From: Candidatus Curtissbacteria bacterium
GTDB taxonomy: Bacteria; Patescibacteriota; Microgenomatia; Curtissbacterales; GWA2-41-24
Length of the DNA: 64,000 bases
Direction of reading: 5' to 3'
Assembly: GCA_016183325.1 (NCBI GenBank)
Contig: JACPEV010000011.1
Span: 36,782 to 100,781, forward strand
In this document: positions 3,512 to 55,826 of the stretch, piece by piece
Layout of the letters: every line of letters starts with the position of its first letter
Position numbering within the stretch: the first letter of the stretch is position 1
Notes under the pieces: generated by a model
The model's database searches: none
What the model was told of the DNA's origin: nothing
What the model saw: the letters and a program-made list of their open reading frames with translations, nothing else
Position numbers and translations under genes: made by a program

Positions 3512-3899
3512 TTATTTTATTTTCGCTTCGCGAAAACCTAGGATTATCAATCCTAGGATGAAGCGAAGAGAAAACATACTTCCGAGAAAGTTTCGAGTTA
3601 GAACCGGAGCCGAATGATATGATTGGTGAAAACCGAGGGCTATTAGCCCTCGGAAGTTTATTTTTTCGAATTCATCTCTAGAGATATTTACATCTCTTAA
3701 AATTTTTCTAAGAAGTCCTATTCTAACATTTTCTCCAGAATGAACTGGTACGCTAGTTTTTCTGCCATCAGCATGTTCTAACCTAACATGACTGCCACTT
3801 TGACGGATCTTCATAGCATCCCTGCAGTTCTGGTACCTCTGCAATATACCATCCATCTTCGTCTTGTTCTATTAACACTTTAAACTGTAGGTCTTTCAT
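3512..3899 (-). pseudogene. hicA: Degenerate hicB–hicA toxin–antitoxin remnant (HicB N-terminal fragment frame-shifted onto a HicA-like C-terminal core)
   Basis: Frame 1 (3899→3783) reads MKDLQFKVLIEQDEDGWYIAEVPELQGCY..., a HicB N-terminal signature, then stops. The overlapping frame (3856→3512) reads ...MKIRQSGSHVRLEHADGRKTSVPVHSGENVRIGLLRKILRDVNISRDEF, a HicA core lacking its usual N-terminal ~15 aa, with a tail that runs through palindromic hairpins. Confidence 0.4.
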
Positions 3900-5951: not shown

Positions 5952-6497
5952 CTTGGTCTCACAGAGACCCGGGGACGGTCCTAAGCTTCCTTGTCCTAAT
6001 AATCTAATTTGAGAATTGTTTTTGGTGCTTCTTTATTCAAACTGTCTTACAACTAAATCTAAGGGACTAATTTTTCAGAGACTCTTACAACTATTTCATT
6101 TTTGGACTATTGTATCAAGCCTTCTGAGGACCGTCCCCTAAATAACCTAAATAACTTTTTCTCTAACCGAAGCAAAAAAAATGAGAGTCCCGAGGGCAAT
6201 AAGAAATCTTTTACGATTGCTTGAATCAGCACAAGGGAAAATGATTTTTGGTAATGTGATCTCATATATTAGAGGATGAAATAGCCGTGTGAGAATACCA
6301 AAAGATTATACGGGCATCCGATTAAAAATTTTCCCTCATCAAGAAATATATTTTGTCCAAAATCCTAATATTTGCATAGAAACTGTTCCTTTTACTAGAG
6401 AAGAAGTGGTCACGTTAGCTAATGGGATTTTGAAAAATCCTGGAGTTTATTGAATGCATAGAGTAAATTATAGAAAACGATGTCCAACTGGAGACAC

Positions 6498-14708: not shown

Positions 14709-14804
14709 TAAATCTAGTATCTAGGATTTAGTATTTGGTATCAAGTGTTTTTTGACAAGGAACATCCTTTGGGATTAAGGTTTGCTGAAAACCTACGTCG
14801 GACT

Positions 14805-14963: not shown

Positions 14964-17963
14964 TTAAAAGCTCTTTGCCAAAAATTGACCGGTGTATGAA
15001 GATTTGACTCTTGCAACTTCACTAGGTGTACCTTGGGCTACAATTTGGCCTCCGCCGTCGCCACCTTCGGGGCCAAGATCAATTATCCAATCGGTGTTTC
15101 TGATAACGTCCATGTTGTGTTCAATAATAATCACCGTATTACCGGTGTCGACTAGGCGCCTGAGGATTGCAAGAAGTCTTTCGATGTCGGCAAAATGTAG
15201 ACCGGTCGTCGGTTCATCTAATATGTATAAAGTTTTCCCGGTTGCCCTTTTTGAGAGCTCGGTTGCCAACTTTACTCGTTGTGCTTCACCGCCTGAGAGT
15301 GTTGGGGCCGGTTGTCCGAGCCTGATATAGCCAAGGCCAACGTCGTAGATTGTTTCAAGTTTTTGTTTTATCTGCGGGATGTTTTCAAAAAAAGAAAGCG
15401 CTTCTTCGACGGTCATTTCCAGAACTTGCGAGATATTTTTGTTTTTATAATGAATTTCCAGGGCTTCTTGATTGTAACGTTTCCCGTTGCAAACTTCACA
15501 GTCGACGTAGACGTCCGGTAAAAATTGCATCTCGATTTTAACTTGACCATCGCCTTCACAGGCTTCGCAACGGCCGCCTTTGACGTTAAACGAGAAACGT
15601 CCCGGTTTGTAGGCTCGAACTCGCGCATCAGTCGTTTTGGAAAACAAATCCCTGATAAATGTAAAAACACCTGTGTAGGTTGCAGGGTTTGAACGAGGAG
15701 TTCTGCCGATTGGTGATTGGTCAATTAATATTACTTTATCAAGATTTTGGGTGCCATGAATTGTTTTGTGCTGGCCTGCTTTTTGACGTGAATGATAAAA
15801 CTCACTCGCGAGGGCATTATAGAGAACATCGTGAATTAATGTAGATTTTCCTGAGCCTGAAACACCAGTGATACAAATAAATTTTCCGAGTGGGAATTCA
15901 ACGTCGATGTTTTTAAGATTATGTTCTTTTGCTTCAAGGACGGTAAGGACGTTGTTACTGTTTGAGCTTGCCCTGTTACCATACGGCACCAGGCTTGTCG
16001 ACCCTTCGATTTTACTCAGGGTCGACACTGAGTTTATCGAATGTGTCGAGAACTTACCATTCCCCAACACCATACGGTGCAAGGTCGCTCGAAGAATATT
16101 ACTTATATCCACTTTTTTCTTTCCCGAAAGATATTTTCCAGTAAGGGAAGAAGGGTTTTTGATAATTTGCAGCGGGGTTCCTTGGGCTACAATTTTGCCT
16201 CCATGTTCGCCGGCTCCAGGGCCGAAATCCAGAATTTCGTCTGACGCTAGCATCATTTCTCGGTCGTGCTCGACAACTATGACGGTATTTCCGAGCTCTC
16301 TTAATTTCTTGAGAGTGGTGATAAGCCTGTTGTTATCCCGTTGGTGCAATCCAATTGACGGTTCATCAAGTACGTAAAGAACCCCAGATAAACCTGAGCC
16401 GATCTGGCTGGCGAGCCTAATTCGTTGAGATTCTCCCCCTGCGAGCGTGTTTGCCGTCCGATCGATGGTTAGATATTCAAGGCCGACATCCAAGAGAAAC
16501 TGAACCCTTGACATTAATTCTTTTAGGATTGGTGTCGATATTTTCTTATCCCGATCAGAGAGTAATTCACGACTTGTGGATAATTCCTTTAGCCACAAGA
16601 GCAGTTTAAAAATGGAGAACCTAGCAACTTCTGAGATGGATTTTTGTATGATTGTTACAGACAAAGCTTCTTTCTTGAGACGTGAACCTTTACACTCTTG
16701 GCACGTGTCTATCCTTATAAACTTTTCGATCTCGAACCTGACATAATTTGATTCCGTGCCCTTATACTTGCGCTCTAAATTATTTATCACGCCTTCGTAA
16801 TTGGTGTCCCAAGAAACAATACGGCCGTAACGATTCGGACCGGTGATGGTGTATGCTTGATCTCCTGAACCATAAAGCAAAATCTTTCTTGCTTCTTTAG
16901 ACAGATTTTCAATTGGTGCATCCATAGGAATTTTGTTTTCTTTAGCAACTGTTACCAAAACTCTCCAGGACCAGCTGTCGGATTCGACTAGGCGTGCCCA
17001 AGGAAGAATTCCGCCCTCTGAAATGGTCAGGTTGGGATTTAGTACAAGATCGGGGTCGACCTTTCGCAGTACGCCTAGTCCGTTACAAGTTGGACACGCT
17101 CCATGGGGGGAGTTGAAAGAAAACGTTCGTGGCTCAATTTCTGGGAGTGAAATATTGTCTTTGGGGCAGGCGAATTTTTCCGAAAAAAGATGATCTTTTA
17201 GCGCGTTTGGAAACTCGGGAATATCAAAAGTCTTATCCAATATCTCGGCAACGATGATTGTGCCTTCGCCAAGTTTTAAGGCCTGTTCTACTGATTGAAA
17301 CAGGCGGCTGTTTTCGGCGGGGATTGTCAGTCGGTCGATAACTGCATCAACTGAGTGTTTATTTGTCTTTATGAGCACAAAATCTTCGTCAAGTGATTTA
17401 ACCTTTCCGTCGATTCTGACATAACGGTATCCTTGCTTTTGCAAGTCTTTAAATAACTCTTTAAATTCACCTTTTCTGTCTTTAACAACTGGGGCAAGAA
17501 GAAGGATTCTGGTGAGTAGCTTGTGGCTTGTAGCACGTAGTTTTTGGATTTCGTCGACTATTTGTTGAGTTGACATGTGGGAAATTTCCCTGCCGCATAT
17601 AGGACAGTGTGGGTGACCAATTCTGGCAAACAAAAGTCGCAAATAATCGTAGATTTCCGTAACTGTTCCAACAGTGGATCTAGGATTGTGGGAAGTAGAC
17701 TTCTGGTCGATGGAAATAGCAGGAGAAAGGCCTTCAATCGAATCAACGTCGGGTTTATCCATAACTCCCAGGAATTGACGTGCGTATGAAGCTAGCGATT
17801 CGACGTAACGGCGTTGTCCTTCGGCATAGATGGTGTCAAACGCCAAGGAAGACTTGCCCGAACCAGAAATTCCCGTAAAAACAACTAGTTTGTTCTTGGG
17901 AATCTCGACATTGATATTTTTGAGATTATGTTCTCGGGCGCCTTTAATAATTATTTTGTCCAT
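14964..17963 (-). CDS. uvrA: Excinuclease ABC subunit A
   Basis: 999 aa. Two ABC modules ([12 protein letters not shown]; [11 protein letters not shown]) and zinc-finger cysteines. Confidence 0.95.
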
Positions 17964-17980: not shown

Positions 17981-18000
17981 ATCAGAATTTTGATTCTGAT
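17981..18000. promoter_or_regulatory. Perfect 20-bp palindrome ATCAGAAT-TTTG-ATTCTGAT overlapping the uvrA promoter (-10 TATAAT on the minus strand, ~13 nt from the ATG); candidate SOS/LexA-type operator
   Basis: 8-bp inverted arms with a 4-bp spacer, sitting between the divergent uvrA start and ORF 18004. Confidence 0.45.
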
Positions 18001-18003
18001 GGT

Positions 18004-18522
18004 TTGTCCAAAATTCCACCCCGAGTAGAGCACTGGAAAGAACTGACATCTTACGTATATACTTTGCCAATGCAAGAGGTACTTGAACCTGAATCTCTCG
18101 AATCTTTGTTTAGAGAGGTAATGATCATGTTTGTCCTCACAGCTGAAGAAATTGTTGAGGATCACGGGGATGGTATAAATTTTGTCGTTGAAACGTTTTC
18201 AACCGAAAGTCTTTTAAAAGGAATCGATCGAAAAGATTCAGCATTTCTCCGTTTGATTAAGTCTTCATCAGGAGTAATACCGGATTTGTTTCCTGAAAGT
18301 TCTTCTGAAGTTAGAATGTCCAGAGAACAAAATACTTATGATTTTTCAATTTCCTGGACTATCGTTGGAGGAACAATAATCAGTCTCGTCTTTAGTGGCT
18401 ATGAGGAAAAAACTACCAACGAGCCAAATTTATTAGGTGAAGCAAGAATTGCTAATAAAATTGTACACAATTTGAATTCGGCCCTTTGGGACTTGGATAA
18501 TTTACAATCAGACCGCCGGTGA
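18004..18522 (+). CDS. Hypothetical protein (divergent from uvrA; true start possibly the internal ATG near 18070)
   Basis: Only sizeable ORF in the 545-bp uvrA–uvrB spacer. The first codon is TTG. Confidence 0.35.
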   Translation: MSKIPPRVEHWKELTSYVYTLPMQEVLEPESLESLFREVMIMFVLTAEEIVEDHGDGINFVVETFSTESLLKGIDRKDSAFLRLIKSSSGVIPDLFPESSSEVRMSREQNTYDFSISWTIVGGTIISLVFSGYEEKTTNEPNLLGEARIANKIVHNLNSALWDLDNLQSDRR

Positions 18523-20511
18523 TTTAAGAATACTTATCTGATCACGAAATTGGGCCGCCCTTTCAAAATCAAGAATCCTGGCGGCGGCTTTCATTTCTCG
18601 AGTTAAAAGTTTTATGAGTTTTTGCTTGTCGGTTGATAGCATATTGCCCTCTTGGGCCCGTTTGACAGCAGACTGGATAACATCGTCTTTGACCATTCGT
18701 TCCTTTTCCTCGTAAATTTTTTCGCGATCAATAAGTTTTTCGCGTATCGGTTTTTCGACCGATTTAGGGGTGATCCCGTGTTGTTGGTTGTACTGGCGTT
18801 GTATCTTTCTTCTTCTTTCCACTTCCGCGATTGCGCGCTTCATCGATCCTGTTTCGACATCTGCGTAGAGTATGACCGATCCTTCAATATGCCTTGCTGC
18901 CCGGCCCATTGTTTGAATAAGAGACGTTTCTGAGCGAAGGAATCCTTCTTTATCGGCATCCAGAACCGCAACTAGCGCAACTTCAGGTAGGTCTAAACCT
19001 TCCCTGAGTAAATTTATACCTACAAGAACATCATAATTACCCGATCTGAGGTCGTCCAGGACGTCTTGACGATCAAGTGTTTGAATCTCCGAATGTAAAT
19101 ACTGAACCTTTAGTCCCTTTTCTTGTAAGAAATCTGTGAGTTCCTCGGCCATGCGTTTAGTCAGTGTGGTGACTAATGTTCTTTGATGTTTGGTTGCGCG
19201 TTTTTCGATTTCTTTAATTAAGTCCTCGATTTGGCCTTTTGATTTGCGAATTGAGATCTCGGGATCAATTAATCCGGTAGGGCGAACTAATTGTTCAACG
19301 ACTTGATCGCTTAAATTTAGCTCGTACTGGGCCGGGGTGGCAGATGTATAGATTACTTGACTAATTTTTCTCGCAAACTCCTCAAACTTCAATGGTCTAT
19401 TGTCGAAAGCGGATGGAAGACGAAAACCGAAGTCCACAAGCATTTCTTTTCTGGCTCTGTCTCCGTTATACATGCCATTGATTTGAGGAACGGTCATATG
19501 CGATTCGTCGATTATTAAAAGGTAGTCTTTTGGGAAATGCTCGATTAAAGAGTATGGCGGGTCACCGGGTTTCCTGCCGTCAAAATGACGCGAGTAGTTT
19601 TCGATACCTTTGCAATAACCGAGCGTTCTTATCATTTCCAAGTCATAGTTTGTTCTCTGCTTAAGTCTGTGAGCTTCAAGCATTTTGCCAGATTTTTCCA
19701 AAACTTTTAATCTTTCTTTGAGTTCTTTCTTAATGCTTTCTGTGGCATTCAGAGTTGTTTCGTCTGAGGCGATGTAGTGTTTGGCGGGGTACAACCAAAT
19801 TAATTCTGATTCTTCTATTTTTGTTCCTGTAATTGGACTGATTACTTCAAGCTTTTTGATAGTTTGATCATGAAAATTGATCCGTAAGGCATTATTTTCA
19901 TAGGCAGGCAAAATTTCAACATTTTCTCCACGAATTCTGTATGTACCTCGCCTGAAGTCGTAATCGTCGCGTTCGTACTGAAGCTTGGCAAAGCCCCTCA
20001 AGAGATCACTTCTTGACCAAATGTCGCCTACCTTGAGACCAAGCCTGGCGTTCTGATACTCTGTGGGTGATCCCAAATTGTAAATCGCCGAAACCGAGGC
20101 TACGACCACAACATCGCGTCTTGTCGCAAGCGAGGTTGTCGCTGCAAGGCGAAGCCTGTCTATTTCTTCATTTACCTCAGTTTCTTTTTCGATATAGGTA
20201 TCGGTTGCTGGCAGATAGGCCTCCGGTTGATAGTAATCGTAATAAGATACAAAATATGAAACTGCATTTTGGGGAAAGAATTCTCGAAATTCCTGGTATA
20301 GCTGCGCTGCCAGTGTTTTGTTGTGGGAGATAACTAAAGTTGGTTTTTGGACCTTTTCGATGACATTGGCGATGGTGAAGGTTTTTCCGGAACCGGTGAC
20401 TCCAAGTAATGTTTGATGGCGAAAGTTTTTATTAAGGCCTTCGACAAGTTTTTCGATTGCTTGCGGCTGGTCGCCGCTTGGCCTGTAAGTTGATGTAAGT
20501 GTAAATTTCAT
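18508..20511 (-). CDS. uvrB: Excinuclease ABC subunit B
   Basis: GVTGSGKTFT Walker A, helicase motifs, C-terminal UVR domain (ARILDFERAAQFRDQI). Confidence 0.95.
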   Translation of the reverse strand: MKFTLTSTYRPSGDQPQAIEKLVEGLNKNFRHQTLLGVTGSGKTFTIANVIEKVQKPTLVISHNKTLAAQLYQEFREFFPQNAVSYFVSYYDYYQPEAYLPATDTYIEKETEVNEEIDRLRLAATTSLATRRDVVVVASVSAIYNLGSPTEYQNARLGLKVGDIWSRSDLLRGFAKLQYERDDYDFRRGTYRIRGENVEILPAYENNALRINFHDQTIKKLEVISPITGTKIEESELIWLYPAKHYIASDETTLNATESIKKELKERLKVLEKSGKMLEAHRLKQRTNYDLEMIRTLGYCKGIENYSRHFDGRKPGDPPYSLIEHFPKDYLLIIDESHMTVPQINGMYNGDRARKEMLVDFGFRLPSAFDNRPLKFEEFARKISQVIYTSATPAQYELNLSDQVVEQLVRPTGLIDPEISIRKSKGQIEDLIKEIEKRATKHQRTLVTTLTKRMAEELTDFLQEKGLKVQYLHSEIQTLDRQDVLDDLRSGNYDVLVGINLLREGLDLPEVALVAVLDADKEGFLRSETSLIQTMGRAARHIEGSVILYADVETGSMKRAIAEVERRRKIQRQYNQQHGITPKSVEKPIREKLIDREKIYEEKERMVKDDVIQSAVKRAQEGNMLSTDKQKLIKLLTREMKAAARILDFERAAQFRDQISILKSPAV

Positions 20512-20679: not shown

Positions 20680-21696
20680 CTACAGCCAGTCGTTTTTGAT
20701 GAAAATTCCAAGAAGTAAAATGACTATGGTAAGAATAGTTATTATAATGATAGCGAAAGCGTGAGAGGAATCGGCCAGAGGAAGATGGATATTCATGCCA
20801 TAAATACTGGCAATCATTGTTGGGATGGTGAGTATTACTGTTAGTGAAGTAAATAGTTTAATAACTCTGTTTAAATTGTTAGTCATAATGCTTGAATAAG
20901 CTTGCCTGATATTTACAATGTTGGTTAAGTTGGCCCTACAGAGACCGACAAGCTCTTCGTTTTCCAGAAGTAAATCTTGGGTTAATTCCTTTTCTTTTTC
21001 AAAAAGATTAAGATATTTATCGGAGTGCAAGCTTTTAACAAGGGCATTGGTTGGAACGAGAGCTGCCATGAAGTCATTCAGAATACTTTCGTAATTGACG
21101 AATTGCACAATATCATAATTGGTAATTCTTTCTACATTTACTCCAAGGCTTCTGACCTTTTTGGATATATCGGTTAAGTGGGTTCTATAAAAAGAGTCAA
21201 TTTGAAAAAAAATCTTGAGAACAGCTTTTGTTCTCTGACTCGTAGCAAAGTCAGCTTTACCGTTTGTTAGGTTTTCAAAGAAAGGAAAAGGGTTTTGGGA
21301 AATAGTTAAGATAAAATCATTGGCCATTATAATCAGAAAGGGTTTAGTTTGGACTTTACCGTTTTCGGCGTAAGGAACTCTGGTAAAAATATAAGCAAAT
21401 TCGTCTTCAACTTCAATTCGAGGAACTTCGTAAGGATCTTGGGCATCGCGAAGTTGATCTGGGTTCAGGGAAAAGTCTTTGATGAGTTTTTTTATTTCCC
21501 CTTTAGTGGGGTTTTCTACATAGATCCATGAGCCTTTTTGAAATTGTTGGATTTGTTTAAACTTTTCGTCGCTAGCATTTTTCTTATAAATGGTGATCAC
21601 GTTGGCCTCCTTGTTATTTTCGGCCACAAAAAAACCCTTTTTGGAACAGGAATATAGGGTTGTTATTATATTAACACTAAAATTGCCTCTTGACAA
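20680..21696 (-). CDS. corA: CorA-family Mg2+/Co2+ transporter (true start probably GTG near 21600; the listed ORF overruns the lexA promoter)
   Basis: C-terminal YGMN motif and two TM helices. Confidence 0.75.
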   Translation of the reverse strand: MSRGNFSVNIITTLYSCSKKGFFVAENNKEANVITIYKKNASDEKFKQIQQFQKGSWIYVENPTKGEIKKLIKDFSLNPDQLRDAQDPYEVPRIEVEDEFAYIFTRVPYAENGKVQTKPFLIIMANDFILTISQNPFPFFENLTNGKADFATSQRTKAVLKIFFQIDSFYRTHLTDISKKVRSLGVNVERITNYDIVQFVNYESILNDFMAALVPTNALVKSLHSDKYLNLFEKEKELTQDLLLENEELVGLCRANLTNIVNIRQAYSSIMTNNLNRVIKLFTSLTVILTIPTMIASIYGMNIHLPLADSSHAFAIIIITILTIVILLLGIFIKNDWL

Positions 21697-21719
21697 TTTC
21701 GGGTTTTGTTTGGTATGTT
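21661..21719 (+). promoter_or_regulatory. lexA promoter region: 16-bp palindrome TGTTATTATATTAACA (21661-21676), -35 TTGACA (21690-21695), 18-nt spacer, -10 TATGTT (21714-21719)
   Basis: The palindrome TGTTA-N6-TAACA resembles CTGT-N8-ACAG-class LexA boxes. The ATG at 21726 lies ~7 nt after the -10, which implies a leaderless mRNA. Confidence 0.45.
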
Positions 21720-21725
21720 AGGAGC

Positions 21726-22343
21726 ATGGCAACAGTAATTTATAAACGACAGAGACAAATTTTGGATTTTCTCAACAATTACATATCCGAACATGATCAC
21801 GCGCCAACACTGGTTGAAATTGCCAAAAAGCTTGGCGTTCGTTCATTGGCGACTGTTCATGAACATTTGCAGACGCTGGAGAGAAAGGGACTTATCAGGC
21901 GAGCATCCGGTTTGGTCCGAGGGATCGAGCTTGTGGACAAAAAAATTGGTCAAGTCGTGCGTGGTATCGACTTACCACTTTTGGGATTTATCGCTGCCGG
22001 CTCCCCTATCGAACCGTATACAGATCCCAATGCGACATTTGCTGTTTCTCCTAACATGATTGCTCCAAATAAAAAATCTTACGTTTTGCAAGTCAGGGGC
22101 CAGTCGATGGTGGAGGATGGGATTTTGGATGGAGATTATGTGGTGGTCGAGGAAACGAACGAAGCCAGAAACGGCGACATAGTAGTTGCGATGATCAGTA
22201 GTGGGGTTGTAACGCTAAAGAGATTTTTTAAAGAAAAGGATCGGATTAAACTTGCTCCGGCAAACTCCAACATGCAGCCGATTTATGTGAAAGACGTAAC
22301 GATTCAGGGAAAATGTGTTGGTGTAATTAGAAGGTATAGTTAA
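21726..22343 (+). CDS. lexA: LexA repressor (S24 peptidase)
   Basis: N-terminal wHTH region (LATVHEHLQTLERKGLIRR), catalytic Ser in VRGQSMVEDGI and Lys in VTLKRF. I chose the ATG at 21726 over the upstream TTG at 21690. Confidence 0.85.
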   Translation: MATVIYKRQRQILDFLNNYISEHDHAPTLVEIAKKLGVRSLATVHEHLQTLERKGLIRRASGLVRGIELVDKKIGQVVRGIDLPLLGFIAAGSPIEPYTDPNATFAVSPNMIAPNKKSYVLQVRGQSMVEDGILDGDYVVVEETNEARNGDIVVAMISSGVVTLKRFFKEKDRIKLAPANSNMQPIYVKDVTIQGKCVGVIRRYS

Positions 22344-29008: not shown

Positions 29009-31279
29009 CTAGTGACTAGCAACTAGTTTCTTTTCTGTTTCATAGATCAATTGTCTGGTATCATCAATCCGATCGGGATTAACTGAAATGGAAGAAATCC
29101 CCCATGAAATCAATTTTTCCACAAGCTCTGGGTAAACAGATGGAGCTTGGCCGCAGATAGAGCATAAAACTCGATTCTTAACACATGTTTTGACTACCTT
29201 TTCTAATGCCCAAAGAACGGCCTTGTCCATTTCATTAAACTGGCTGGCGACTTCTTCGTTGTCTCTGTCTGTTCCTAAGATCAGCATCGTTAAATCGTTA
29301 GAACCAATGGAGACTCCATCAATACCAAGTTTTAAAAACTGCTCAAGAAGTATGACATTTGCAGGAATTTCGGCCATCATCCAGAATTGAAAACTTGGAT
29401 CTTTAAACAAATTGGCCTCTTCTACCATCTCTTTGACATTTTTGAGTTCGTTTGGAGTTCTTACGAAGGGAATCATAAGTTGCAAATTTGGATGCTTTTG
29501 ACGAACTTGAAGAATGGCAGACAGTTCAAGTTTGAATACATCAGGGTCTTTTACGTATCGAAATGCTCCCCTGTAGCCTAACATGGGGTTTGCTTCTTTG
29601 GGTTCAAACTTATCCCCTCCTTTAAGGTCTTTATATTCGTTCGATTTAAGATCACTGGCTCTATAGATTACGGACCTTTCGCCGAAAGCTTTAGCAAAAA
29701 CAACTAGTTTATCTGACAGCATGTTTATAAAGTCCTCTTTTTTACCTTCTTTTAAAAATACCTTGGGATGAGTTCCGATTTCGGCAAGAATGAATTCTGC
29801 TCTTAAAAGTCCTATTCCGTCGACTGGCTTTGCAGCTATTTGGACGGCCATTTGAGGACTGGAGAGATTAACCAAAAGTTTTGTGGCAGTTTTAGTGACG
29901 AGACGAAGCGATTCTTTGTTGGCTAAATGTAGTTCTGAGGGCTTGAGCCTACTTCCTTCAAAAACCAAACCTTTGGCGCCATCGACGGTGACTGTCATAC
30001 CACTTTTGAGTTTGTGTGTTGCTCCCTCGGCGCCAACAATGCAAGAAATGCCAAATTCTCTGGCAACTATAGCGGCGTGTGAAGTACGTCCACCTTTTTC
30101 AGTAATAACAGCGGCAGCTTTTTTCATCGCTTGAACGTAATCTGGGTTGGTCATTTTTGCAACTAAAACATCACCTTTTTGGACTTTTGTTAGTTCTTTT
30201 GGTGAGTTTATGACTACGACTGTCCCTGTAGCAATTATTGGAGATGCAGGAGAACCTGTTAATATCGGCGAATGGTGAATAGTGAATGGTGAATGGATAG
30301 TTCCTCTGTCTTCCATTCTCAATTTTCCATTTTCCAGTGTGGTGACCGGCCGTGTTTGAACAATATATAACTTCTTATTCTCGTAAGCCCACTCGATATC
30401 TTGAGGGAAAAAATAATGTTTTTCTATTCTTGCGCCGAGCCTTGCAAGTTCAATAATTTTTTCATCCGGAAGTTTTTGGGTTTTTCTAAATTCCCTGGCG
30501 ATTGTTATCAGTTTATTGCCATTTTTACTCTTGACTAATTGTTTATCTTGGGACTGGATATTCTTTTTGGTTATTTGAAGCGTTTTTTTGTCGACTTCGT
30601 AGTGATCCGGTGTAACCTGTCCACTTACGATCAGTTCTCCAAGACCGAAGGCTGACTCTATAATTATTTTGCCTTTATCATTTGTAATTGGATCTACGGT
30701 AAACATAACCCCAGAAACCTCCGACTGGACCATTTTTTGAACAGGAACGGCGATGCCAACTTTAAAATGGTCAAATTTTTTTTGCACCCGGTAGAAAATG
30801 CTTCTGCCTTCAAAAAGTGAAGCCCACGTGGATAAAATTGCTTCTTTTAGCGCTTTTTTGCCTCGAATATTAAGAAAGGTTGCTTGCTGGCCAGCAAAGG
30901 AGGCACTAGGGAGGTCTTCCGCCGTTGCCGACGAACGAACAGCAACATAGTCTTTGCCTTGAGAAAGTTTGTTATAAAACGTGTCTATTTTACGCGCAAG
31001 CGCTGAATCTAATTGAATGTTTTTTATCTCTTTTTGAGCGCCTTCCGCAGCCTTTTGAAGTGCCAGGGGGTCGTCAACATTAAGACCATACAGAAGGCCT
31101 TTTATACGATCCAGCGCTCCTGAGGATCTGACGTTTTGGAAATACGCCTGAGAGGTAATTATAAAACCATTGGGAATCGGGATCTTAAATCGGGTGAGTT
31201 CGCCAAGATTAGCACCTTTACCACCAACGATCACACCGTCATTTTTGTCAACTTGTTCAAACCAAACAATATTTTCCAT
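29009..31279 (-). CDS. ppsA: Phosphoenolpyruvate synthase / pyruvate, water dikinase (PEP-utilising enzyme family)
   Basis: ATP-grasp N-domain, phosphohistidine region GGRTSHAAIVAREFGISCIVG and C-terminal PEP-utilising TIM barrel. An internal 7-nt repeat at 30270-30300 encodes an insert-like segment. Confidence 0.8.
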   Translation of the reverse strand: MENIVWFEQVDKNDGVIVGGKGANLGELTRFKIPIPNGFIITSQAYFQNVRSSGALDRIKGLLYGLNVDDPLALQKAAEGAQKEIKNIQLDSALARKIDTFYNKLSQGKDYVAVRSSATAEDLPSASFAGQQATFLNIRGKKALKEAILSTWASLFEGRSIFYRVQKKFDHFKVGIAVPVQKMVQSEVSGVMFTVDPITNDKGKIIIESAFGLGELIVSGQVTPDHYEVDKKTLQITKKNIQSQDKQLVKSKNGNKLITIAREFRKTQKLPDEKIIELARLGARIEKHYFFPQDIEWAYENKKLYIVQTRPVTTLENGKLRMEDRGTIHSPFTIHHSPILTGSPASPIIATGTVVVINSPKELTKVQKGDVLVAKMTNPDYVQAMKKAAAVITEKGGRTSHAAIVAREFGISCIVGAEGATHKLKSGMTVTVDGAKGLVFEGSRLKPSELHLANKESLRLVTKTATKLLVNLSSPQMAVQIAAKPVDGIGLLRAEFILAEIGTHPKVFLKEGKKEDFINMLSDKLVVFAKAFGERSVIYRASDLKSNEYKDLKGGDKFEPKEANPMLGYRGAFRYVKDPDVFKLELSAILQVRQKHPNLQLMIPFVRTPNELKNVKEMVEEANLFKDPSFQFWMMAEIPANVILLEQFLKLGIDGVSIGSNDLTMLILGTDRDNEEVASQFNEMDKAVLWALEKVVKTCVKNRVLCSICGQAPSVYPELVEKLISWGISSISVNPDRIDDTRQLIYETEKKLVASH

Positions 31280-33930: not shown

Positions 33931-34026
33931 TTGACATGAAATCTTTCATATATTATATTGTCCCATGCTTATCGCAAGATAGGCAATTTGAAAGGGCTTC
34001 TCGCAAGAGAGGCCTTTTCTTTTTTG
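33931..34026 (+). ncRNA. Candidate small RNA module 1: TTGACA-N17-TATATT promoter, GNRA-tetraloop hairpin (CTTATCgcaaGATAGG), intrinsic terminator (GGGCTTCTCgcaaGAGAGGCC plus T-run)
   Basis: Complete promoter-to-terminator unit of ~60 nt with no ORF, on the strand opposite to the flanking genes. Paralogous to 34586-34678. Confidence 0.45.
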
Positions 34027-34027
34027 A

Positions 34028-34077
34028 TGGTAGAAGGTAGAAGATAGAAGATGGAATGTGAGGATAGAAGGTAGACA
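34028..34077 (+). repeat. Iteron-like array of (G/A)(G/A)TAGAA heptamers (GATGGTAGAA GGTAGAA GATAGAA GATGGAA ... GATAGAA GGTAGAC)
   Basis: Tandem motif array immediately 3' of the four-helix-bundle gene. An inverted counterpart lies at 34488-34552. Confidence 0.6.
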
Positions 34078-34485
34078 TTAGAAAGATTTCCAGTTCCTGC
34101 GAAGATTTGTTAATTTACCACCTAGCATTTGATATCTTTTAAGTAAAGCCTCGCAAAAATCTTTTTCCCAATAGTTTAAATCTCTTGCTGTATCTATGTG
34201 CACTTCCATTTCATTTGCAGACCCAAGTAAACTGTCAAGGTGTTTTTTAAATTCCTTCTCGAATCTTCTCTTCGCCCATCCTTCAGCAATGTTAGAGGGG
34301 CAAGATTTTGAAGCTCTTCTCATTTGCGATGCCAAATCGTTTCTCTCGTAAACAGGAAATTTCTCAACTGCTTTATGGACAATCAGCATCAGCTGGTAAG
34401 CCTCTTGGTATACTTCGAGGTCGCGAAAACTCTTGATCATTTTGCTTTTAAGGAAAGGGTTGCACTTTCTATCGGTACATTTCAA
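34078..34485 (-). CDS. Four-helix-bundle protein (TIGR02436 / PF05635 '23S rRNA-intervening-sequence protein' family, Avd-like fold)
   Basis: FRDLEVYQEAYQLMLIVHKAVEKFP...ERNDLASQMRRASKSCPSNIAEGWAKR matches the family signature. Confidence 0.8.
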   Translation of the reverse strand: MKCTDRKCNPFLKSKMIKSFRDLEVYQEAYQLMLIVHKAVEKFPVYERNDLASQMRRASKSCPSNIAEGWAKRRFEKEFKKHLDSLLGSANEMEVHIDTARDLNYWEKDFCEALLKRYQMLGGKLTNLRRNWKSF

Positions 34486-34487
34486 AT

Positions 34488-34552
34488 CTATACTCTATCA
34501 TCAAAATCTACCGTCTACCCTCAATCATCTATCATCTAATTATGATTGATCT
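34488..34552 (+). repeat. Inverted copy of the GGTAGA/GATAGA iteron array (reads TCTACC/TCTATC on the plus strand)
   Basis: atctaccgtctaccctcaatcatctatcatcta. With 34028-34077 it forms inverted terminal arrays bracketing the four-helix-bundle gene. Confidence 0.55.
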
Positions 34553-34585: not shown

Positions 34586-34678
34586 TTGACAAGGGTCGTT
34601 TACTAGTATATATTTGTCGATGCTTATCGCAAGATAGGCAATGAAAGGGCTTAGGGGGTAACTCTTAAGCCTTTTCTT
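34586..34678 (+). ncRNA. Candidate small RNA module 2: TTGACA-N17-TATATT promoter, identical hairpin ATGCTTATCGCAAGATAGGCAAT, terminator GGGCTTAGggggtaactCTTAAGCC plus T-run
   Basis: Paralog of 33931-34026. Lies in the upstream (5') region of the four-helix-bundle gene but on the opposite strand. Confidence 0.45.
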
Positions 34679-34681
34679 CAT

Positions 34682-37504: not shown

Positions 37505-37954
37505 TAGATATGTATTTTAAGTTAATGATCGTAAAATTAGCAATTAGACATCTTGATTTTCGGGTTTTCTTTGGATAGAATAACTATATTAAAAATCAAA
37601 ACTCAAAAATCAAAATTACATTCAAGAAATTTGTACTTGATCCCCATAATTTTGATATTTGATATTTAATATTTGGTATGGCTTCTGACACATTTATCAA
37701 CGAACAAGTATCCGTCTGGGCTTTTTTTGACCCTTCGGCGGCGTCATCTCATATTTTCCCAATTGCCATGAATTGGCGAAGACGACTTGTCAAATTCCAA
37801 AAATTAATCCTTTCGACAACTAAAAGAGTTGGCGATGCAAAAATACTGAACTTAATTTGTGCTTCCGATACTGCCTGCTTTGAGCTTGAATATAACTCTG
37901 ACAGCCACTTGTGGAGACTAGTGAAAGTAATGAGTCAGGAGTAACGAAGAAAAT

Positions 37955-38092
37955 TGATGATAGACGGTAGAAAATAGATGGTAGATATAGATAATAGAAA
38001 ATAGATGGTAGAAGGTTGATATTCTATCTTCAAACTTCTATCATCAAAATCCATTATCTAGCTTCAACCGTCTACCATCAAACGTCAGATCT
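37955..38092. promoter_or_regulatory. Palindromically arranged GGTAGA/GATAGA iteron array upstream of dinB (direct half ~37958-38015, inverted half ~38023-38090)
   Basis: GATGATAGAC GGTAGAA AATAGAT GGTAGAT ... ATAGATGGTAGAAGG / ...TCTATCTTC...TTCTATCATC...CCGTCTACCATC. Shares the AGATGGTAGAAGGT core with 34028-34077. Confidence 0.55.
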
Positions 38093-38096
38093 TAAT

Positions 38097-39518
38097 ATGA
38101 ATCGCGTAATTCTCCATGTTGATTTAAATAGTTTTTTTGCGACCGCTGAGCAGCAGGCAAATCCGGTTTTGCGCGGTAAACCGGTAGGTATTACCAAAGC
38201 GGTTGGGCGTACTTGCATCATCGCGGCTTCAGTTGAGGCTAAACGTTGGGGAGTAACTACCGGTAGTAACGTTTATGATGCCAGAAAACTATGTCCACAA
38301 ATTATTTTGATACCTGCTGATTTTGATAAGTATGCGGATATTTCCATGCGTTTTATTGAAATTTGCAAAACATATTCGCCGCTTTGCGAAGTATTTTCTT
38401 TGGACGAATGTTTTATTGATGTAACGGAAACTGAAAAATTCTGGCATAACGTTTTTAATATTGCTTTTGAGATTAAAGATAGGCTGAGATCTGAGGTTGG
38501 TGAACGGATGACTGTATCTTGCGGAGTTTCCCACAACAGGCTTCTTGCCAAACTTGCTTCTTCGCAAATTAAACCGGACGGGCTTTTTTGGATAACTCGC
38601 GACAATGCAATTTCAACTTTAGATAAGTCGGATTTAACGGATGTGTGCGGTCTGGGATTTGCTCTAAATCGTCGTTTGCGAGATTTAGGCATTGATAGTT
38701 TTCCTAAGCTAAGATCAAAGTCACTGGTATTTTTGCATAAACATTTTGGGCCGTTCTGGTCAAAGCATCTTTATAATATCGCACGCGGAATTGATGAATC
38801 ACCGGTTGTGCCGACGGACGAAATACCTGATGCCAAAAGCGTTGGCAGAACTTACACAACACATAGGGACTTAACAAATAAAGATGAAGTTTTGCAGTTG
38901 ATGCGAAATCTGTGTGAAGAAACGACTGCTAAAGCTCGCATGATGGGTCTTGCGGGCAGATATGTAGGATTGACGTTAAGAGGATCGAGTCTTGAAACTA
39001 AATCCGAATACCAAAAATCGTTTTTCGAAGAAAACGGGACTCAATCCGAAACAAATTCTAATGTTCAAAATTCTAAATCCAAAACAGTTTCTAATTTAGG
39101 TAATTTGGATTTTGATATTGTTTCGAATTTTGAGATTCGTGCTTCGAATTTATACCGAGGAGAGCTTAGTTTTTATGGGCATCGGACATTAAAAAACTAT
39201 ATAGATGATGGGAAACGACTTTTTGATATATGCTTAGCAATTTGTAAAGAATGGTCTGTTTTTGCCGCAAAACCAAATGTGCGTTTTTGCGGAGTGACTT
39301 TGGGAATGCTTACTGAAGTGCGCTTTTTAACAACTCCCCTATTTTCTGCTGACAGACGGCGTCAAGACTTAGTAAAAACTATTGATCAGATCAACCGGAG
39401 ATTTGGCGATTATACTGTTTACCCTGGACAACTTCTGGGAATGCCGATTATTCGACCTGAGGTTAACGGCTACTTTGGCGACAAAGCCTACAGGCTTAAC
39501 TTTGTACCTCACGGGTAA
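38097..39518 (+). CDS. dinB: Y-family DNA polymerase (DinB/Pol IV-like) with extended C-terminus
   Basis: MNRVILHVDLNSFFATAEQQANP...SLDECFIDVTE catalytic motifs. I chose the ATG at 38097 over the upstream listed start, which lies inside the iteron array. Confidence 0.85.
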   Translation: MNRVILHVDLNSFFATAEQQANPVLRGKPVGITKAVGRTCIIAASVEAKRWGVTTGSNVYDARKLCPQIILIPADFDKYADISMRFIEICKTYSPLCEVFSLDECFIDVTETEKFWHNVFNIAFEIKDRLRSEVGERMTVSCGVSHNRLLAKLASSQIKPDGLFWITRDNAISTLDKSDLTDVCGLGFALNRRLRDLGIDSFPKLRSKSLVFLHKHFGPFWSKHLYNIARGIDESPVVPTDEIPDAKSVGRTYTTHRDLTNKDEVLQLMRNLCEETTAKARMMGLAGRYVGLTLRGSSLETKSEYQKSFFEENGTQSETNSNVQNSKSKTVSNLGNLDFDIVSNFEIRASNLYRGELSFYGHRTLKNYIDDGKRLFDICLAICKEWSVFAAKPNVRFCGVTLGMLTEVRFLTTPLFSADRRRQDLVKTIDQINRRFGDYTVYPGQLLGMPIIRPEVNGYFGDKAYRLNFVPHG

Positions 39519-40885: not shown

Positions 40886-41143
40886 CTAAAGTTTCTTTAG
40901 AGATTTAAGAAAATGTTTATACATAAAAGCAACTCCTGATCCTGATTTTAAGTATTTTTCAAAACCCAAAGCGTCAGCTTTCTCAACGAACGAGGAATAG
41001 TGCACAAGTTTGTAATTCAGGTTAGATTTTGTCGACTGAACTTTACCTGATAGATGTCTTTGGATACGTTTTCTTAAATCTGGAGTGTAACCTATGTAAT
41101 ATCGATTTGTAATTTCGTTAAATAAAATGTAAACGTAATACAT
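40886..41143 (-). CDS. Small GIY-YIG nuclease, YhbQ/UPF0213-like (85 aa)
   Basis: YYVYILFNEITNRYYIGYTPDLRKRIQRHLSGK (GIY...YIG, R, H..G) and the downstream E/K-rich helix. Confidence 0.8.
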   Translation of the reverse strand: MYYVYILFNEITNRYYIGYTPDLRKRIQRHLSGKVQSTKSNLNYKLVHYSSFVEKADALGFEKYLKSGSGVAFMYKHFLKSLKKL

Positions 41144-42240: not shown

Positions 42241-42498
42241 ATGTATACTGTCTACGTAATTAAAAGTGAATCGACGGGCAAAATATATATTGGTCAAACA
42301 GCAGTTAAAGTAACAAGATTAAAAAGGCACAATAAGGAGCTGCCTTATAATCCAAAAGGATTTACAGCAAAGAATGTAGGGCCGTGGAGAATTGTTTACG
42401 AAGAAACTTTTGAGACAAGAACAGAAGCATTAAAAAAAGAAAAATATTTAAAATCACACGTGGGACGCGATTACATCAGAAAAACATTGGCCCGCTAG
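42241..42498 (+). CDS. Small GIY-YIG nuclease, YhbQ/UPF0213-like (85 aa); its stop codon lies inside the 5' end of tRNA-Lys
   Basis: MYTVYVIKSESTGKIYIGQTAVKVTRLKRHN... The stop TAG comes from GGCCCGC-TAG-CTC of the tRNA. Confidence 0.8.
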   Translation: MYTVYVIKSESTGKIYIGQTAVKVTRLKRHNKELPYNPKGFTAKNVGPWRIVYEETFETRTEALKKEKYLKSHVGRDYIRKTLAR

Positions 42499-42661: not shown

Positions 42662-42934
42662 ATGAGTCGAAGGGCTAATGTATCTTGGTACGTATATATA
42701 GCTAAAGCAAAAACTGGCAGATATTACACAGGTATAACCACAAGTCCAGATAAAAGAATTATTAAACATAACTCCGGGAAGGGTTTAAAGTTTGCCATAG
42801 AGCAAGGCCCATTTGAATTGGTCTATGTCTCAGAAGCATTTCCAAATAAGTCAGAAGCAAGAAAACGAGAAATTCAAATTAAAGGCTGGTCGAGAGAAAA
42901 GAAATTAAAACTAATAAGCGGCGAGTGGAAATAA
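42662..42934 (+). CDS. Small GIY-YIG nuclease, YhbQ/UPF0213-like (90 aa)
   Basis: WYVYIAKAKTGRYYTGITTSPDKRIIKHNSGKGLKFA...LVYVSEAFPNKSEARKREIQIKGWSREKK closely follows the YhbQ pattern. Confidence 0.8.
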   Translation: MSRRANVSWYVYIAKAKTGRYYTGITTSPDKRIIKHNSGKGLKFAIEQGPFELVYVSEAFPNKSEARKREIQIKGWSREKKLKLISGEWK

Positions 42935-53339: not shown

Positions 53340-53550
53340 AGTTATTAGAAAGCTTGCTTCGAGCAAGTTCTCTTGCGAGAAGTGGAAAGTGGTATTGGAA
53401 ATCAGAAGTGGGAAATGGTTGAAAATGAATTTTCCATTTTCAATTTTCCACTTTCCATTACTGCTTTCAAACTTCCAAAAACCATTTTCAAAATTCATCC
53501 CTTATTTCTTCATACTTGATACTTAATACTTGATACTTAATACTTAAGAT
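53340..53550. repeat. Intergenic array: inverted GGAAAGTGG/GGAAATGG motif blocks (53380-53470) followed by a 4x ATACTTRAT tandem repeat (53508-53546)
   Basis: tggaaagtgg...gtgggaaatgg // ccattttcaattttccactttcca; then atacttgatacttaatacttgatacttaatactta. Confidence 0.6.
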
Positions 53551-53552
53551 AT

Positions 53553-54893
53553 ATGCGCATTTTTTTCTACGGGGCGTGCAGGGAAGTTACGGGATCGAAT
53601 ATTTTGGTGGAGGTTGCAGGCAAAAAAATTCTTCTTGATTGCGGTATTTTCCAGGGCAGTCGGATGGCAGAGGAAAGGAATTATTCACCTTTTGTGTTTG
53701 ATGCAAAAAGTATCGATGTGGTAGTGGTTTGTCACGCTCATCTGGACCATACTGGCAGATTACCAAAACTGGTAAAAGACGGTTTTCGCGGAAAAATTTA
53801 TGCAACTGCCCCGACTGCTCAGTTAACCGAGCTGGTGCTTGATGATAGCGAAAAGCTGATGAGGGAAGAATCCCAGAGGGATAACCATCCACCGCTTTAC
53901 GGTCCTGCAGAAATTGAGACGACGATGGAGCTTTTTACCACAATCCCTTACGACGAAGGCGTTGAAATTTCTCCCGGTATTAAAATTACCCTGAAAAACG
54001 CCGGACATATTCTTGGATCTTCTGTTTTAATTTTAGAAACTGAAGGAAAAACTCTTGTTTATACAAGCGATCTTGGCAATGCACCATCTGAGCTTTTATC
54101 TCCTCCTGAAAGGATTGAAAAAGCAGATTTTGTGATTTCGGAAACAACTTATGGCGGTAGAGTTCACGAAGATATCACTAAACGTCATGCGAAGTTAAAT
54201 TCGATAATTAACTCCACAATTTCCGAAAACGGTGTTTTAATGATTCCGACATTTGCCATTGAGCGCACTCAAGAGTTACTTCACGATATAGAGCATTTTT
54301 GTACGATCGCCAATTGCACGATCCCGACTTTTTATTTAGATAGTCCGTTGGCGGAAAAGGTGACTCGTGTTTTTCAAAAGTATCCTGAATATTTAAATCC
54401 CAGGCTTAATCTTGCCCATGATAATGATATTTTTGGACTCTCTCGCTTACGGATCACTTCAACTGTCGATGCGTCGAAACAAATTGATGATGCGCCTAAC
54501 CCTAAGATAATTATAGCCGGATCAGGTATGATGAACGGAGGAAGAATTTTATACCATCTGCAAAATTATATCGGTGATGCCAACAGCACACTTTTAATAG
54601 TAAGTTATCAGTCTGGCGGCACTTTGGGCAGACGACTTATCGACGGGGAGAAAGTTATTAAGATTTTTGGTAAAAAGTATAACGTTGCCGCAAATGTCGT
54701 GGCCATTGGATCTTACAGCGCTCATGCTGATGCTCCACAGCTTTTAAGGTGGCTTTCTACTATTTCGGGCGTCAAGAAAATCTTTTTGGTTCATGGGGAG
54801 GGTGATCAGGCGCTGGCTTTCGGCGAGTCGGTGAAGGAAAAAATGGGTGTTGATGTTATCATTCCGCAACAGGGAGAAATGTATGAATTATGA
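53553..54893 (+). CDS. MBL-fold β-CASP RNA-metabolising hydrolase (RNase J-like)
   Basis: VVCHAHLDHTGRLP (HxHxDH), β-CASP motifs downstream, C-terminal H in LVHGE. Confidence 0.8.
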   Translation: MRIFFYGACREVTGSNILVEVAGKKILLDCGIFQGSRMAEERNYSPFVFDAKSIDVVVVCHAHLDHTGRLPKLVKDGFRGKIYATAPTAQLTELVLDDSEKLMREESQRDNHPPLYGPAEIETTMELFTTIPYDEGVEISPGIKITLKNAGHILGSSVLILETEGKTLVYTSDLGNAPSELLSPPERIEKADFVISETTYGGRVHEDITKRHAKLNSIINSTISENGVLMIPTFAIERTQELLHDIEHFCTIANCTIPTFYLDSPLAEKVTRVFQKYPEYLNPRLNLAHDNDIFGLSRLRITSTVDASKQIDDAPNPKIIIAGSGMMNGGRILYHLQNYIGDANSTLLIVSYQSGGTLGRRLIDGEKVIKIFGKKYNVAANVVAIGSYSAHADAPQLLRWLSTISGVKKIFLVHGEGDQALAFGESVKEKMGVDVIIPQQGEMYEL

Positions 54894-55031: not shown

Positions 55032-55697
55032 ATGGCTAAAATAATACCGGGAATTTTAACAAATAGCGAAGAGGAGTATCATGAGCGGCTTCTTAAGGCC
55101 GAACACGTCAGCGACTTAATTCAAATTGATGTGGTGGACGGCAAATTCTCTGCCAATACTACAATCCAAACGGACGTTATTAAAAAATATCTTTCTTCAG
55201 CCCAACTTGAAATTCAACTAATGGTTGTTTTTCCTCAAAACTACATTGATGATCTAGCACCTTTAGAATACGTTTCCAGAATTATTTTCCCTTTTGAAAT
55301 TCATGGGGACGTTCGAGACGATATCTACTTAATCAAGAGATTCGGTAAACAAGCCGGAATTTCGCTAAACCCCGAAACCCCAGTTAAAGCTGCTATCCAT
55401 TTTTTTGACGATATAGACATCTTGCTTTTGATGACTGGTAAACCCGGATATTCAGGCCAAAAGTTGGGTGAGGACACTTACGATAGAATTAAAGAGGTTA
55501 AGAAAATAGTTCCTGATTTACCTATCGAAATCGATATTGGTGTTAACTTTGAAAACGCAGCAAAACTTGCTCACGCAGGAGCTGATTTTTTAGTTGCTTC
55601 GAGTGCTCTTTATGGCGCGCCCGATTTTAGAGTCGCTTATGAGAAACTTGCCAAATTGGCGGAAGTTAATGAAAAGAAAATGGTTGCTGGAAAGTAG
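55032..55697 (+). CDS. rpe: Ribulose-phosphate 3-epimerase-like
   Basis: LIQIDVVDGKFSANTTI and LLLMTGKPGYSGQKL resemble Rpe motifs. Divergent. Confidence 0.65.
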   Translation: MAKIIPGILTNSEEEYHERLLKAEHVSDLIQIDVVDGKFSANTTIQTDVIKKYLSSAQLEIQLMVVFPQNYIDDLAPLEYVSRIIFPFEIHGDVRDDIYLIKRFGKQAGISLNPETPVKAAIHFFDDIDILLLMTGKPGYSGQKLGEDTYDRIKEVKKIVPDLPIEIDIGVNFENAAKLAHAGADFLVASSALYGAPDFRVAYEKLAKLAEVNEKKMVAGK

Positions 55698-55826
55698 AAA
55701 ATAGTAATAGAAAGTAGAAATGGGAAATTAGAAATTTAACTCTTAACTATTTTCCAATCTCAAATTTCCATTACCATTTTCAAGTCTCTAGTTAACCAAT
55801 TTCTAGTACTTTGTTAATATTAAATT
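55698..55826. repeat. Intergenic inverted array of GAAAGTAGAAA/GGGAAATTAGAAAT motifs
   Basis: gaaagtagaaaatagtaatagaaagtagaaatgggaaattagaaat // attttccaatctcaaatttccattaccattttcaag. Confidence 0.55.

Follow-up and report, generated by a model that had tools for sequence, protein, structure and literature searches.

Intervening sequences (IVSs) that carry an S23p/IVP open reading frame (ORF) interrupt the 23S rRNA genes of Leptospira and Coxiella burnetii (Ralph & McClelland 1993; PMC4990558). RNase III excises their stems; in Coxiella, where several tandem GACAGAT heptamers precede the S23p ORF, the cut falls at the first heptamer (PMC4990558). In the Candidate Phyla Radiation (CPR), 23S_rRNA_IVP ORFs have been reported in insertions of both 16S and 23S genes (PMC11270868). 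Here we describe a palindrome in the spacer upstream of dinB in Candidatus Curtissbacteria, a CPR bacterium of the Microgenomates. It lies in a 64-kb stretch of DNA, which we call the window. The palindrome is very probably a canonical ORF-less member of a family of IVS-type palindromic elements, and it is most likely a non-autonomous insertion between dinB and the upstream gene, ORF88. The basis for this reading is the homology of the arms, their conserved nine-unit architecture, the distribution of the family and the absence of the element from other dinB loci.

Several other repeats are useful for comparison. The Rickettsia palindromic elements (RPEs) were reportedly described by Ogata and co-workers in 2000 and 2002. 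RPEs are imperfect palindromes of ~100-150 bp without a transposase, found in intergenic DNA, in RNA genes and in frame within protein-coding genes; their copies are diverged rather than near-identical, and their mechanism of mobility is unknown. The Correia elements or Neisseria miniature insertion sequences (NEMIS), like palindromes of the enterobacterial repetitive intergenic consensus (ERIC) and repetitive extragenic palindromic (REP) type, are small repeats that are co-transcribed with their flanking genes. RNase III cuts the hairpins of Correia elements, which can also give rise to promoters; these elements have 26-bp terminal inverted repeats, TA target duplications and hundreds of near-identical copies. 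Finally, Xanthomonas (unit GGGAATC) and Nostoc contain intergenic heptamer arrays, often in convergent pairs on opposite strands, with no known function (PMC4692102).

The dinB palindrome is the longest inverted repeat found in the window (seed 8, no more than 800 nt between copies), and its arms are 75% complementary. It occupies the 152-bp spacer between ORF88 and dinB, beginning 10 nt past the ORF88 stop codon and ending 16 nt ahead of the dinB ATG. As RNA it folds at -48 kcal/mol, compared with -25.6 +/- 3.7 kcal/mol for dinucleotide shuffles (z = -6.0; 0 of 200 shuffles equalled it), and as DNA the fold reaches z = -5.4. The two strands fold near-equally (-47 versus -52 kcal/mol). The motif GATGGTAGA, with at most one mismatch, occurs 39 times in the window against 10 +/- 3 expected, in clusters at 34026-34536 and 37956-38079, and there are 14 in-phase runs of at least three T.GA heptamers against 0.9 in shuffles. 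Two independent Logan assemblies (SRR12113420 and SRR12113419) reproduce the region without a mismatch, and the array is therefore not an assembly artefact.

An earlier note on this DNA had reported a palindromic array of GGTAGA iterons upstream of a dinB start at 38097. Our data bear out the location and the palindromic arrangement, which exceeds shuffled sequence both in fold and in motif counts, and the start codon agrees with the Pfam IMS domains and the orthologue alignment. GGTAGA-like units are indeed enriched and clustered, but the conserved unit is not GGTAGA; it is the heptamer nnT(a)GAa, in which T, G and A are nearly invariant. In the register of a hidden Markov model (HMM) of the arms, these three positions carry ~2 bits each and the others 0.1-0.8 bits. 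The commonest arm layout is five T.GA units, a 6-nt step and four more units, and both dinB arms match it exactly.

The same arms occur elsewhere in the window, around a gene for a 23S_rRNA_IVP (Avd-like) four-helix-bundle protein; the nearest solved structure is that of Xcc0516, a pentameric protein that is likewise a four-helix bundle (PDB 2gsc, E = 3e-13). Two arms bracket this gene in inverted orientation, and the one on its downstream side starts within the T-run of a plus-strand terminator. All four arms, two at dinB and two in this cassette, align with 73% mean column identity and match one arm HMM (E = 3e-9 to 4e-13). Three of the four have the terminal motif TTGATGrTAGA in common; the right-hand cassette arm starts with TTAGATGATAGA. 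Given the homology of the arms and their inverted placement around the gene, the dinB palindrome corresponds to two cassette arms joined by 8 nt that replace the gene: where the dinB copy has its loop, the cassette has ~400 nt including the IVP gene. The earlier note was thus right that the dinB array and the one beside the four-helix-bundle gene form one family. The second array is there as it had said, but it is not merely adjacent, being a pair of arms that enclose the gene. The 14-mer quoted as their common core is one base too long: the preceding base differs, and the exact core is the 13-mer GATGGTAGAAGGT, at 34026 and 38004. Recent copying within the genome was rejected, because the arms of the resident cassette are no nearer to the dinB arms than arms from other genomes are. 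A third palindrome, degenerate and again without an ORF, overlaps the rpe stop codon (Table 1).

Table 1 Coordinates of the dinB palindrome, the IVP cassette and related features in the window
Feature	Position	Strand	Description
Imperfect palindrome, no ORF	37954-38081		128 bp: two 60-nt arms and 8-nt loop; found by inverted-repeat search
5' arm	37954..38013	+	Nine T.GA heptamers, phasing 7-7-7-7-6-7-7-7; starts with terminal motif TTGATGATAGAC; nhmmer E = 5e-11
Loop	38014..38021	.	8 nt, GGTTGATA; connects both arms
3' arm	38022..38081	-	T.GA heptamers on minus strand, phasing 7-7-7-7-6-7-7-7; terminal motif TTGATGGTAGAC; nhmmer E = 4e-13
Promoter-like site TTGATA-17-TATCAT	38016..38044	+	10/12, consensus match alone; in loop and 3' arm, toward dinB
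ORF88	37678..37944	+	88 aa, conserved, no Pfam match; co-directional with dinB
dinB, DNA polymerase IV	38097..39518	+	IMS, IMS_HHH_1 and IMS_C domains
23S_rRNA_IVP / four-helix-bundle (Avd-like) gene	34078-34440	-	120 aa; PF05635, E = 1e-25; cargo of full-length element
Cassette arm, downstream side of IVP gene	34007..34086	+	nhmmer E = 1e-10; abuts IVP stop codon
Cassette arm, upstream side of IVP gene	34487..34552	-	nhmmer E = 3e-9
Third palindrome, degenerate, ORF-less	55685..55792	.	Between rpe and LOG-family gene; arm HMM E = 0.003, 0.11; fold z = -3.5
uvrC	11521-12777		Repair gene
uvrA	14964-17963		Repair gene
uvrB	18508-20511		Repair gene
lexA	21690-22343		Repair gene; probable ATG 21727

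A search of genome contigs with the IVP protein as query returned 79 loci. At most CPR loci the two 140-nt flanks of the IVP gene pair as a duplex of -60 to -100 kcal/mol (z -4 to -11), with a period-7 autocorrelation of 0.45-0.6. The arms can be aligned between genomes (consensus tTtGAcGnTAGAngaTAGAannTaGAAgnTaGAattTTGAaGnTnGAAgaTaGAagnTAGAat), and the family, dinB arms included, has the terminal motif TTGAYGnTAGAC in common. Across all loci we counted 55 cassettes (arm, ~400 nt, arm) and, with the dinB copy, 12 ORF-less palindromes, which are 115-160 bp long; the cassettes retain T.GA at 96.6% of positions and the palindromes at 94%. In 12 of ~57 CPR loci, Rfam puts cassettes within or next to 16S or 23S rRNA genes, and their orientation is in every case that of the rRNA. 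Homologous copies are inserted in rRNA genes at L012, L015, L019, L023, L051 and L052. At L052 the tip of a 23S helix has given way to an ORF-less palindrome, a 169-nt insert at position ~1765 of the Rfam LSU model, which is the geometry of a classical IVS. Some cassettes are found in group-I-like introns, among them that of L022, which occupies a sub-threshold group I intron close to the 16S rRNA 3' end. L052 also has two tandem IVP cassettes between its 23S and 5S rRNA genes (L052:2134-3617), and L045 has a second arm pair, enclosing ~560 nt of cargo (L045:3558-4289).

Most loci have no rRNA within 2.5 kb of the IVP gene, and on our window Rfam gave only tRNAs above the gathering threshold and no rRNA. 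Like the dinB copy, roughly half of the copies without an ORF occupy short spacers between co-directional genes. A TatD DNase gene contains one ORF-less copy in frame, with its Pfam domain continuous across the insert, and a GT1 glycosyltransferase ORF contains another; the two copies share one reading frame (LKVGVEDRxxKIE...PLSS). Cassette arms outside rRNA abut gene ends (median 25-41 nt), with a convergent downstream neighbour in 27 cases versus 12. Similar arrangements extend beyond the CPR. Of 21 distant IVP homologues (38-50% identity; L069-L090), which come from Omnitrophota, Planctomycetota, Bacteroidota, Elusimicrobia and other phyla, most have inverted arrays on their flanks that consist of other purine-rich 7-8-mers, with units that include GCAAGAG, GTCAGAA, GTAAGGAA, GTGAGGAA and GCTGGAA. 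We found no publication in which IVP genes are connected with phased heptamer arms, or with copies that lack an ORF and lie outside rRNA, in a literature that we covered incompletely.

How does the locus compare with the systems described above? The window cassette carries the same cargo family as the rRNA IVSs (PF05635), its complementary termini likewise pair into a long stem whose loop holds the ORF, and both have tandem heptamers in their 5' part (GACAGAT in Coxiella, nnTAGAa here). Homologous CPR copies sit inside 16S and 23S rRNA genes and at an rRNA helix tip. Unlike an rRNA IVS, the dinB copy is located outside any rRNA gene, between two protein-coding genes, and its 8-nt loop holds no ORF. 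Its ~60-nt arms of nine phased heptamers also differ from the Coxiella IVS, which has a 28-bp near-perfect stem. The in-frame copies in the TatD gene and the GT1 glycosyltransferase ORF recall RPEs, but there is no sequence similarity, and RPEs have neither phased heptamers nor a full-length partner with an IVP gene. By analogy, the dinB copy would resemble Correia elements in its presumed mode of action and in its promoter-like site. It differs from them in that there are three copies in 64 kb, their arms are ~70% identical and no target duplication was found. Xanthomonas, where heptamer arrays are known, is also the source of the IVP-family crystal structure 2gsc; the units of those arrays are G-rich and quadruplex-capable, unlike ours, and the study that described them draws no link to IVP genes (PMC4692102).

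Three further classes share single traits with the element. The cargo of the full-length copy is a homologue of Avd, a protein of diversity-generating retroelements (DGRs) (PF05635; PMC10053308). We rejected a DGR reading of this gene because no reverse transcriptase was present among the window ORFs scanned; a template/variable repeat pair was not searched for. Its repeats are phased heptamer arms rather than such a pair. The Pfam-identified neighbours of the IVP gene are xseA and, three genes further, a rhomboid protease, with three ORFs without a Pfam match between them. Being short and non-coding, 128 bp with 60-nt inverted arms, the dinB copy resembles a miniature inverted-repeat transposable element (MITE). 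Unlike in MITEs, the full-length partner encodes only the IVP protein, no transposase was found among the scanned window ORFs, and the three copies in 64 kb have arms 70-78% identical, no closer to one another than to arms of other genomes. The sequences bordering the palindrome, GAAGAAAA on one side and ACGTCAG on the other, show no evident direct repeat; the corresponding spacer of the closest relative is not alignable, which leaves the empty site undefined. The iterons of plasmids and origins are direct units of 17-22 bp, unlike these inverted 7-bp units, which have no rep gene nearby.

To place the palindrome among dinB loci, we used DinB as query against metagenomes. The search gave 69 loci, 50 of them with enough upstream sequence to be used. 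None of the 50 has an arm-HMM match (E <= 0.01, +/-1.2 kb), and their upstream folds are not unusually stable (z -2.9 to +1.4). The closest syntenic relative, L003 (72% DinB identity), has the same gene order: xseA, IVP, a 211-aa ORF, a 356-aa ORF, rhomboid, an 89-aa ORF and dinB. Its IVP gene is likewise bracketed by GGTAGA-type arms. Such arms are absent from the spacer between its 89-aa ORF and dinB, which is only 53 bp long. There, TGAC-core heptamers form a shorter palindrome (L003:5935-6005; AATTGAC ATTTGAC ... GTCACTT GTCACAT; -26.5 kcal/mol, z = -4.3) that covers and sequesters the dinB start codon. We therefore did not take the L003 spacer as an empty site: the palindrome it holds is either a diverged remnant or an independent element.

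Two further features of these loci were noted. The window DinB has an insertion of ~58 aa in the little-finger domain (38994-39170, ~aa 300-357) that is missing in most orthologues (P0003 and P0042 have no insert, P0002 and P0005 a shorter one), and the DNA encoding it contains a hairpin that is not of the T.GA type (39024-39148, z = -3.4). The IVP cassette is flanked by direct-repeat modules (33931-34025 and 34586-34680, 80% identical), which are also present in L003 (L003:1850-1945 and 2480-2580). Each module contains a sigma-70-like promoter (TTGACA-17-TATATT, 11/12), a conserved GNRA hairpin (GCTTATC-GCAA-GATAGGC) and an intrinsic terminator, and they predict a plus-strand small RNA of ~60 nt without an Rfam match. 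We rejected them as part of the element, because they are confined to the Curtissbacteria lineage (L003-L011) and absent at other IVP loci.

What might the element do at dinB? The spacer would be co-transcribed with ORF88 and dinB, and its RNA would fold into a ~55-bp stem with periodic mismatches. By analogy with classical rRNA IVS stems, this stem may be a substrate of RNase III, whose cleavage would separate or destabilise the ORF88 and dinB cistrons. The element possibly also adds the promoter-like site, which may be fortuitous. Any effect on dinB would then be a side effect of the insertion rather than dedicated SOS control. That an RNA stem and RNase III act in this way at the dinB site is possible but somewhat doubtful. 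We hold the overall interpretation, family membership combined with such action, with moderate confidence.

The evidence for pairing is mixed. Partner arms covary in their outer ~20 nt; column 46, for example, pairs in 0.77 of elements against 0.39 expected. Across the 55 cassettes, the fold of the IVP-sense strand is slightly more stable than that of the antisense strand (-52.8 versus -49.4 kcal/mol; 37/55 cassettes, p = 0.018). The stem is real, yet much of its pairing follows from the presence of the same phased motif in both arms. Several observations count against our interpretation. Beyond the outer ~20 nt, partner arms barely covary (0.42 versus 0.38 expected), and they are 70% identical compared with 67% for non-partner arms. 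With covariation this weak and partner arms hardly more alike than others, the pairing could be largely a by-product of the shared motif array. G-U mismatches are about as frequent as A-C mismatches (382 versus 342), and a clear signature of selection for one RNA strand is therefore lacking. The retention of T.GA at 94-97% of positions goes beyond what a simple stem model explains. No RNase III gene was seen among the scanned ORFs of the 64-kb window. We found no target-site duplication, transposase or near-identical copies, and mobility is therefore inferred from distribution only. Lastly, the same spacer in L003 is occupied by the TGAC-core heptamer palindrome, with its fold z of -4.3, and some hairpin upstream of dinB may have a site-specific role in this small clade. 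We accordingly do not claim a stem proven by covariation, which is weak outside the outer ~20 nt. Nor do we claim a strand-specific RNA signature: the folds of the two strands and the G-U and A-C counts are not decisive and amount to a weak preference for the IVP-sense strand.

The earlier note had suggested that the array is a damage-responsive SOS operator. Its position directly upstream of dinB, the presence of lexA in the window, the promoter-like site within the palindrome and the hairpin in the same spacer of L003 would all suit a LexA/SOS operator or another dedicated transcriptional operator of dinB. This reading is unsupported because the array is absent at the 50 orthologous dinB loci and at SOS genes, and present in rRNA, introns and coding sequence. 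Upstream of lexA, uvrA, uvrB and uvrC in the window there is no arm-HMM match, GGTAGA cluster or T.GA run, and the array is also missing in L003. A 128-bp array with 18 repeat units is unlike any known LexA box, and the Cheo-type box GAAC-N4-GTTC is not enriched (15 matches versus 26 expected). Copies of the element occur essentially indiscriminately, with no positional bias to promoters, which is the outcome that the earlier note had named as refuting its reading. Overall, we consider an operator function of this kind extremely improbable. A perfect palindrome just upstream of uvrA, TCAGAATTTTGATTCTGA (17982-17999), could be an operator and has no second good copy in the window; an operator of this type for dinB was rejected, there being no counterpart near dinB. 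Alternatively, the hairpin might act only as a terminator, an insulator or a 3'-end stabiliser of the upstream gene, having arisen locally by heptamer slippage and palindrome formation. It does start 10 nt past the ORF88 stop codon, cassettes outside rRNA mostly have arms that adjoin gene ends, more often than not with a convergent downstream neighbour, and this genome has many other period-7 arrays and hairpins. But a T-run is absent and no terminator-like site was detected between ORF88 and dinB. Moreover, the arms match an HMM built from other genomes, including the 6-nt phase step, which local slippage would not reproduce, and they carry the terminal TTGAYGnTAGAC motif of the family. We therefore regard a locally formed hairpin with such a role alone as very improbable.

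The remaining alternative is compatible with an IVS-type insertion and concerns the T.GA core. Its phasing, beyond what pairing explains, hints at sequence-specific recognition by a protein, possibly the pentameric IVP itself. The arrays would be binding platforms, most plausibly for the element's own IVP (Avd-like) protein, with one oligomer per in-phase T.GA block on DNA or RNA, and the dinB copy would be an extra site in trans. This is close to the idea of the earlier note that one regulator links dinB and the Avd-like cassette, and the protein-binding character which that note saw in the array accords with the periodic, near-invariant T.GA, the pattern that sequence-specific binding would be expected to leave. 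Within the heptamers T, G and A carry ~2 bits each while the other positions are near random, and the invariance is about equal in ORF-less copies and cassettes. The layout of five units, a 6-nt step and four units is conserved, a phasing that slippage would not preserve, and the arms hold their consensus without partner-specific similarity. Stop codons as the cause of T.GA invariance were rejected by reasoning: TGGA units are common, and a stop codon does not require both the first T and the last A. In other phyla, too, inverted arrays flank the IVP homologues, built from different purine-rich 7-8-mers. The IVP family forms homopentameric rings (PMC4990558), and the window protein matches PDB 2gsc. 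Against such a platform, Coxiella S23p is likely to be unexpressed in vivo (PMC4990558), co-inheritance of gene and arms would give the same correlation between gene and repeat without binding, copies translated in frame inside genes are unlikely operators, and a 7-bp period does not match the helical repeat of DNA. On balance we consider a binding platform unlikely, though the most credible of these alternatives.

Other repeats in the window were also recorded. The divergent spacer between rhomboid and ORF88 contains a second palindrome (37586-37679; 33-nt arms, 79% complementary, z = -3) of AAAAATC / TTTGATA heptamers, whose T.GA arrays point outward, not inward. A short heptamer palindrome (30270-30336) lies in frame in a gene for a PPDK/PEP-utilising enzyme (29009-31279, minus strand), in the linker between the PPDK_N and PEP-utilizers domains; its coding strand reads TGGAAAA TGGAAAA TTGAGAA TGGAAGA, and the T.GA core is kept. 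Directly upstream of a beta-CASP/RMMBL ribonuclease gene (53553-54893), the repeats at 53400-53547 comprise a T.GA-type heptamer hairpin (53403-53462) followed by a CTTAATA x5.7 tandem array (53508-53547). The region 14636-14746 holds a perfect GAGTGAT x4.6 array inside the 5' end of a transglutaminase-like gene (12774-14708) and an ATCTAGT x5 array directly upstream of its start codon. At the 3' end of a HicA-toxin-like gene (3512-3856, minus strand) there is a strong hairpin with 26-nt arms, 81% complementary, and a 3-nt loop (3520-3574; region fold z = -6.4). A 37-nt inverted repeat, GGGGACGGTCC...GGACCGTCCCC (5971-6138), encloses 94 nt right after tRNA-Gly/tRNA-Arg and has no Rfam match. 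Three stand-alone GIY-YIG ORFs of 85-90 aa (40886-41143, 42241-42498 and 42662-42934) cluster around tRNA-Glu and tRNA-Lys.

For dinB the outcome is deflationary: the array is no evidence for an unusual SOS operator in CPR bacteria. For the elements themselves the implications are broader. IVSs with an IVP ORF have hitherto been treated as a curiosity of rRNA genes, encoding a protein without known function. What emerges here is that the phased T.GA stem also exists without an ORF, outside rRNA, and in frame inside protein-coding genes. With the analogous arrays at IVP genes of other phyla, this makes two questions directly testable: are IVS-type elements mobile, and to what do IVP proteins bind? 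The element also offers one source for the over-representation of heptameric repeats that earlier work noted and left unexplained. The most interesting possibility is that T.GA arrays are recognised in a sequence-specific way, perhaps by the pentameric IVP. Speculatively, and we think this rather unlikely, IVP genes and inverted, phased arrays of purine-rich 7-8-nt units might together constitute one widespread class of selfish element, in which a pentameric IVP would be the element's own factor and would read the arrays, each block having five in-phase T.GA units. The autonomous members of this class would be the cassettes, and the non-autonomous ones the palindromes without an ORF, among them the dinB copy. 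If true, this would give a function to the long-orphan IVP/S23p family and would explain part of the heptameric-repeat excess in bacterial genomes.

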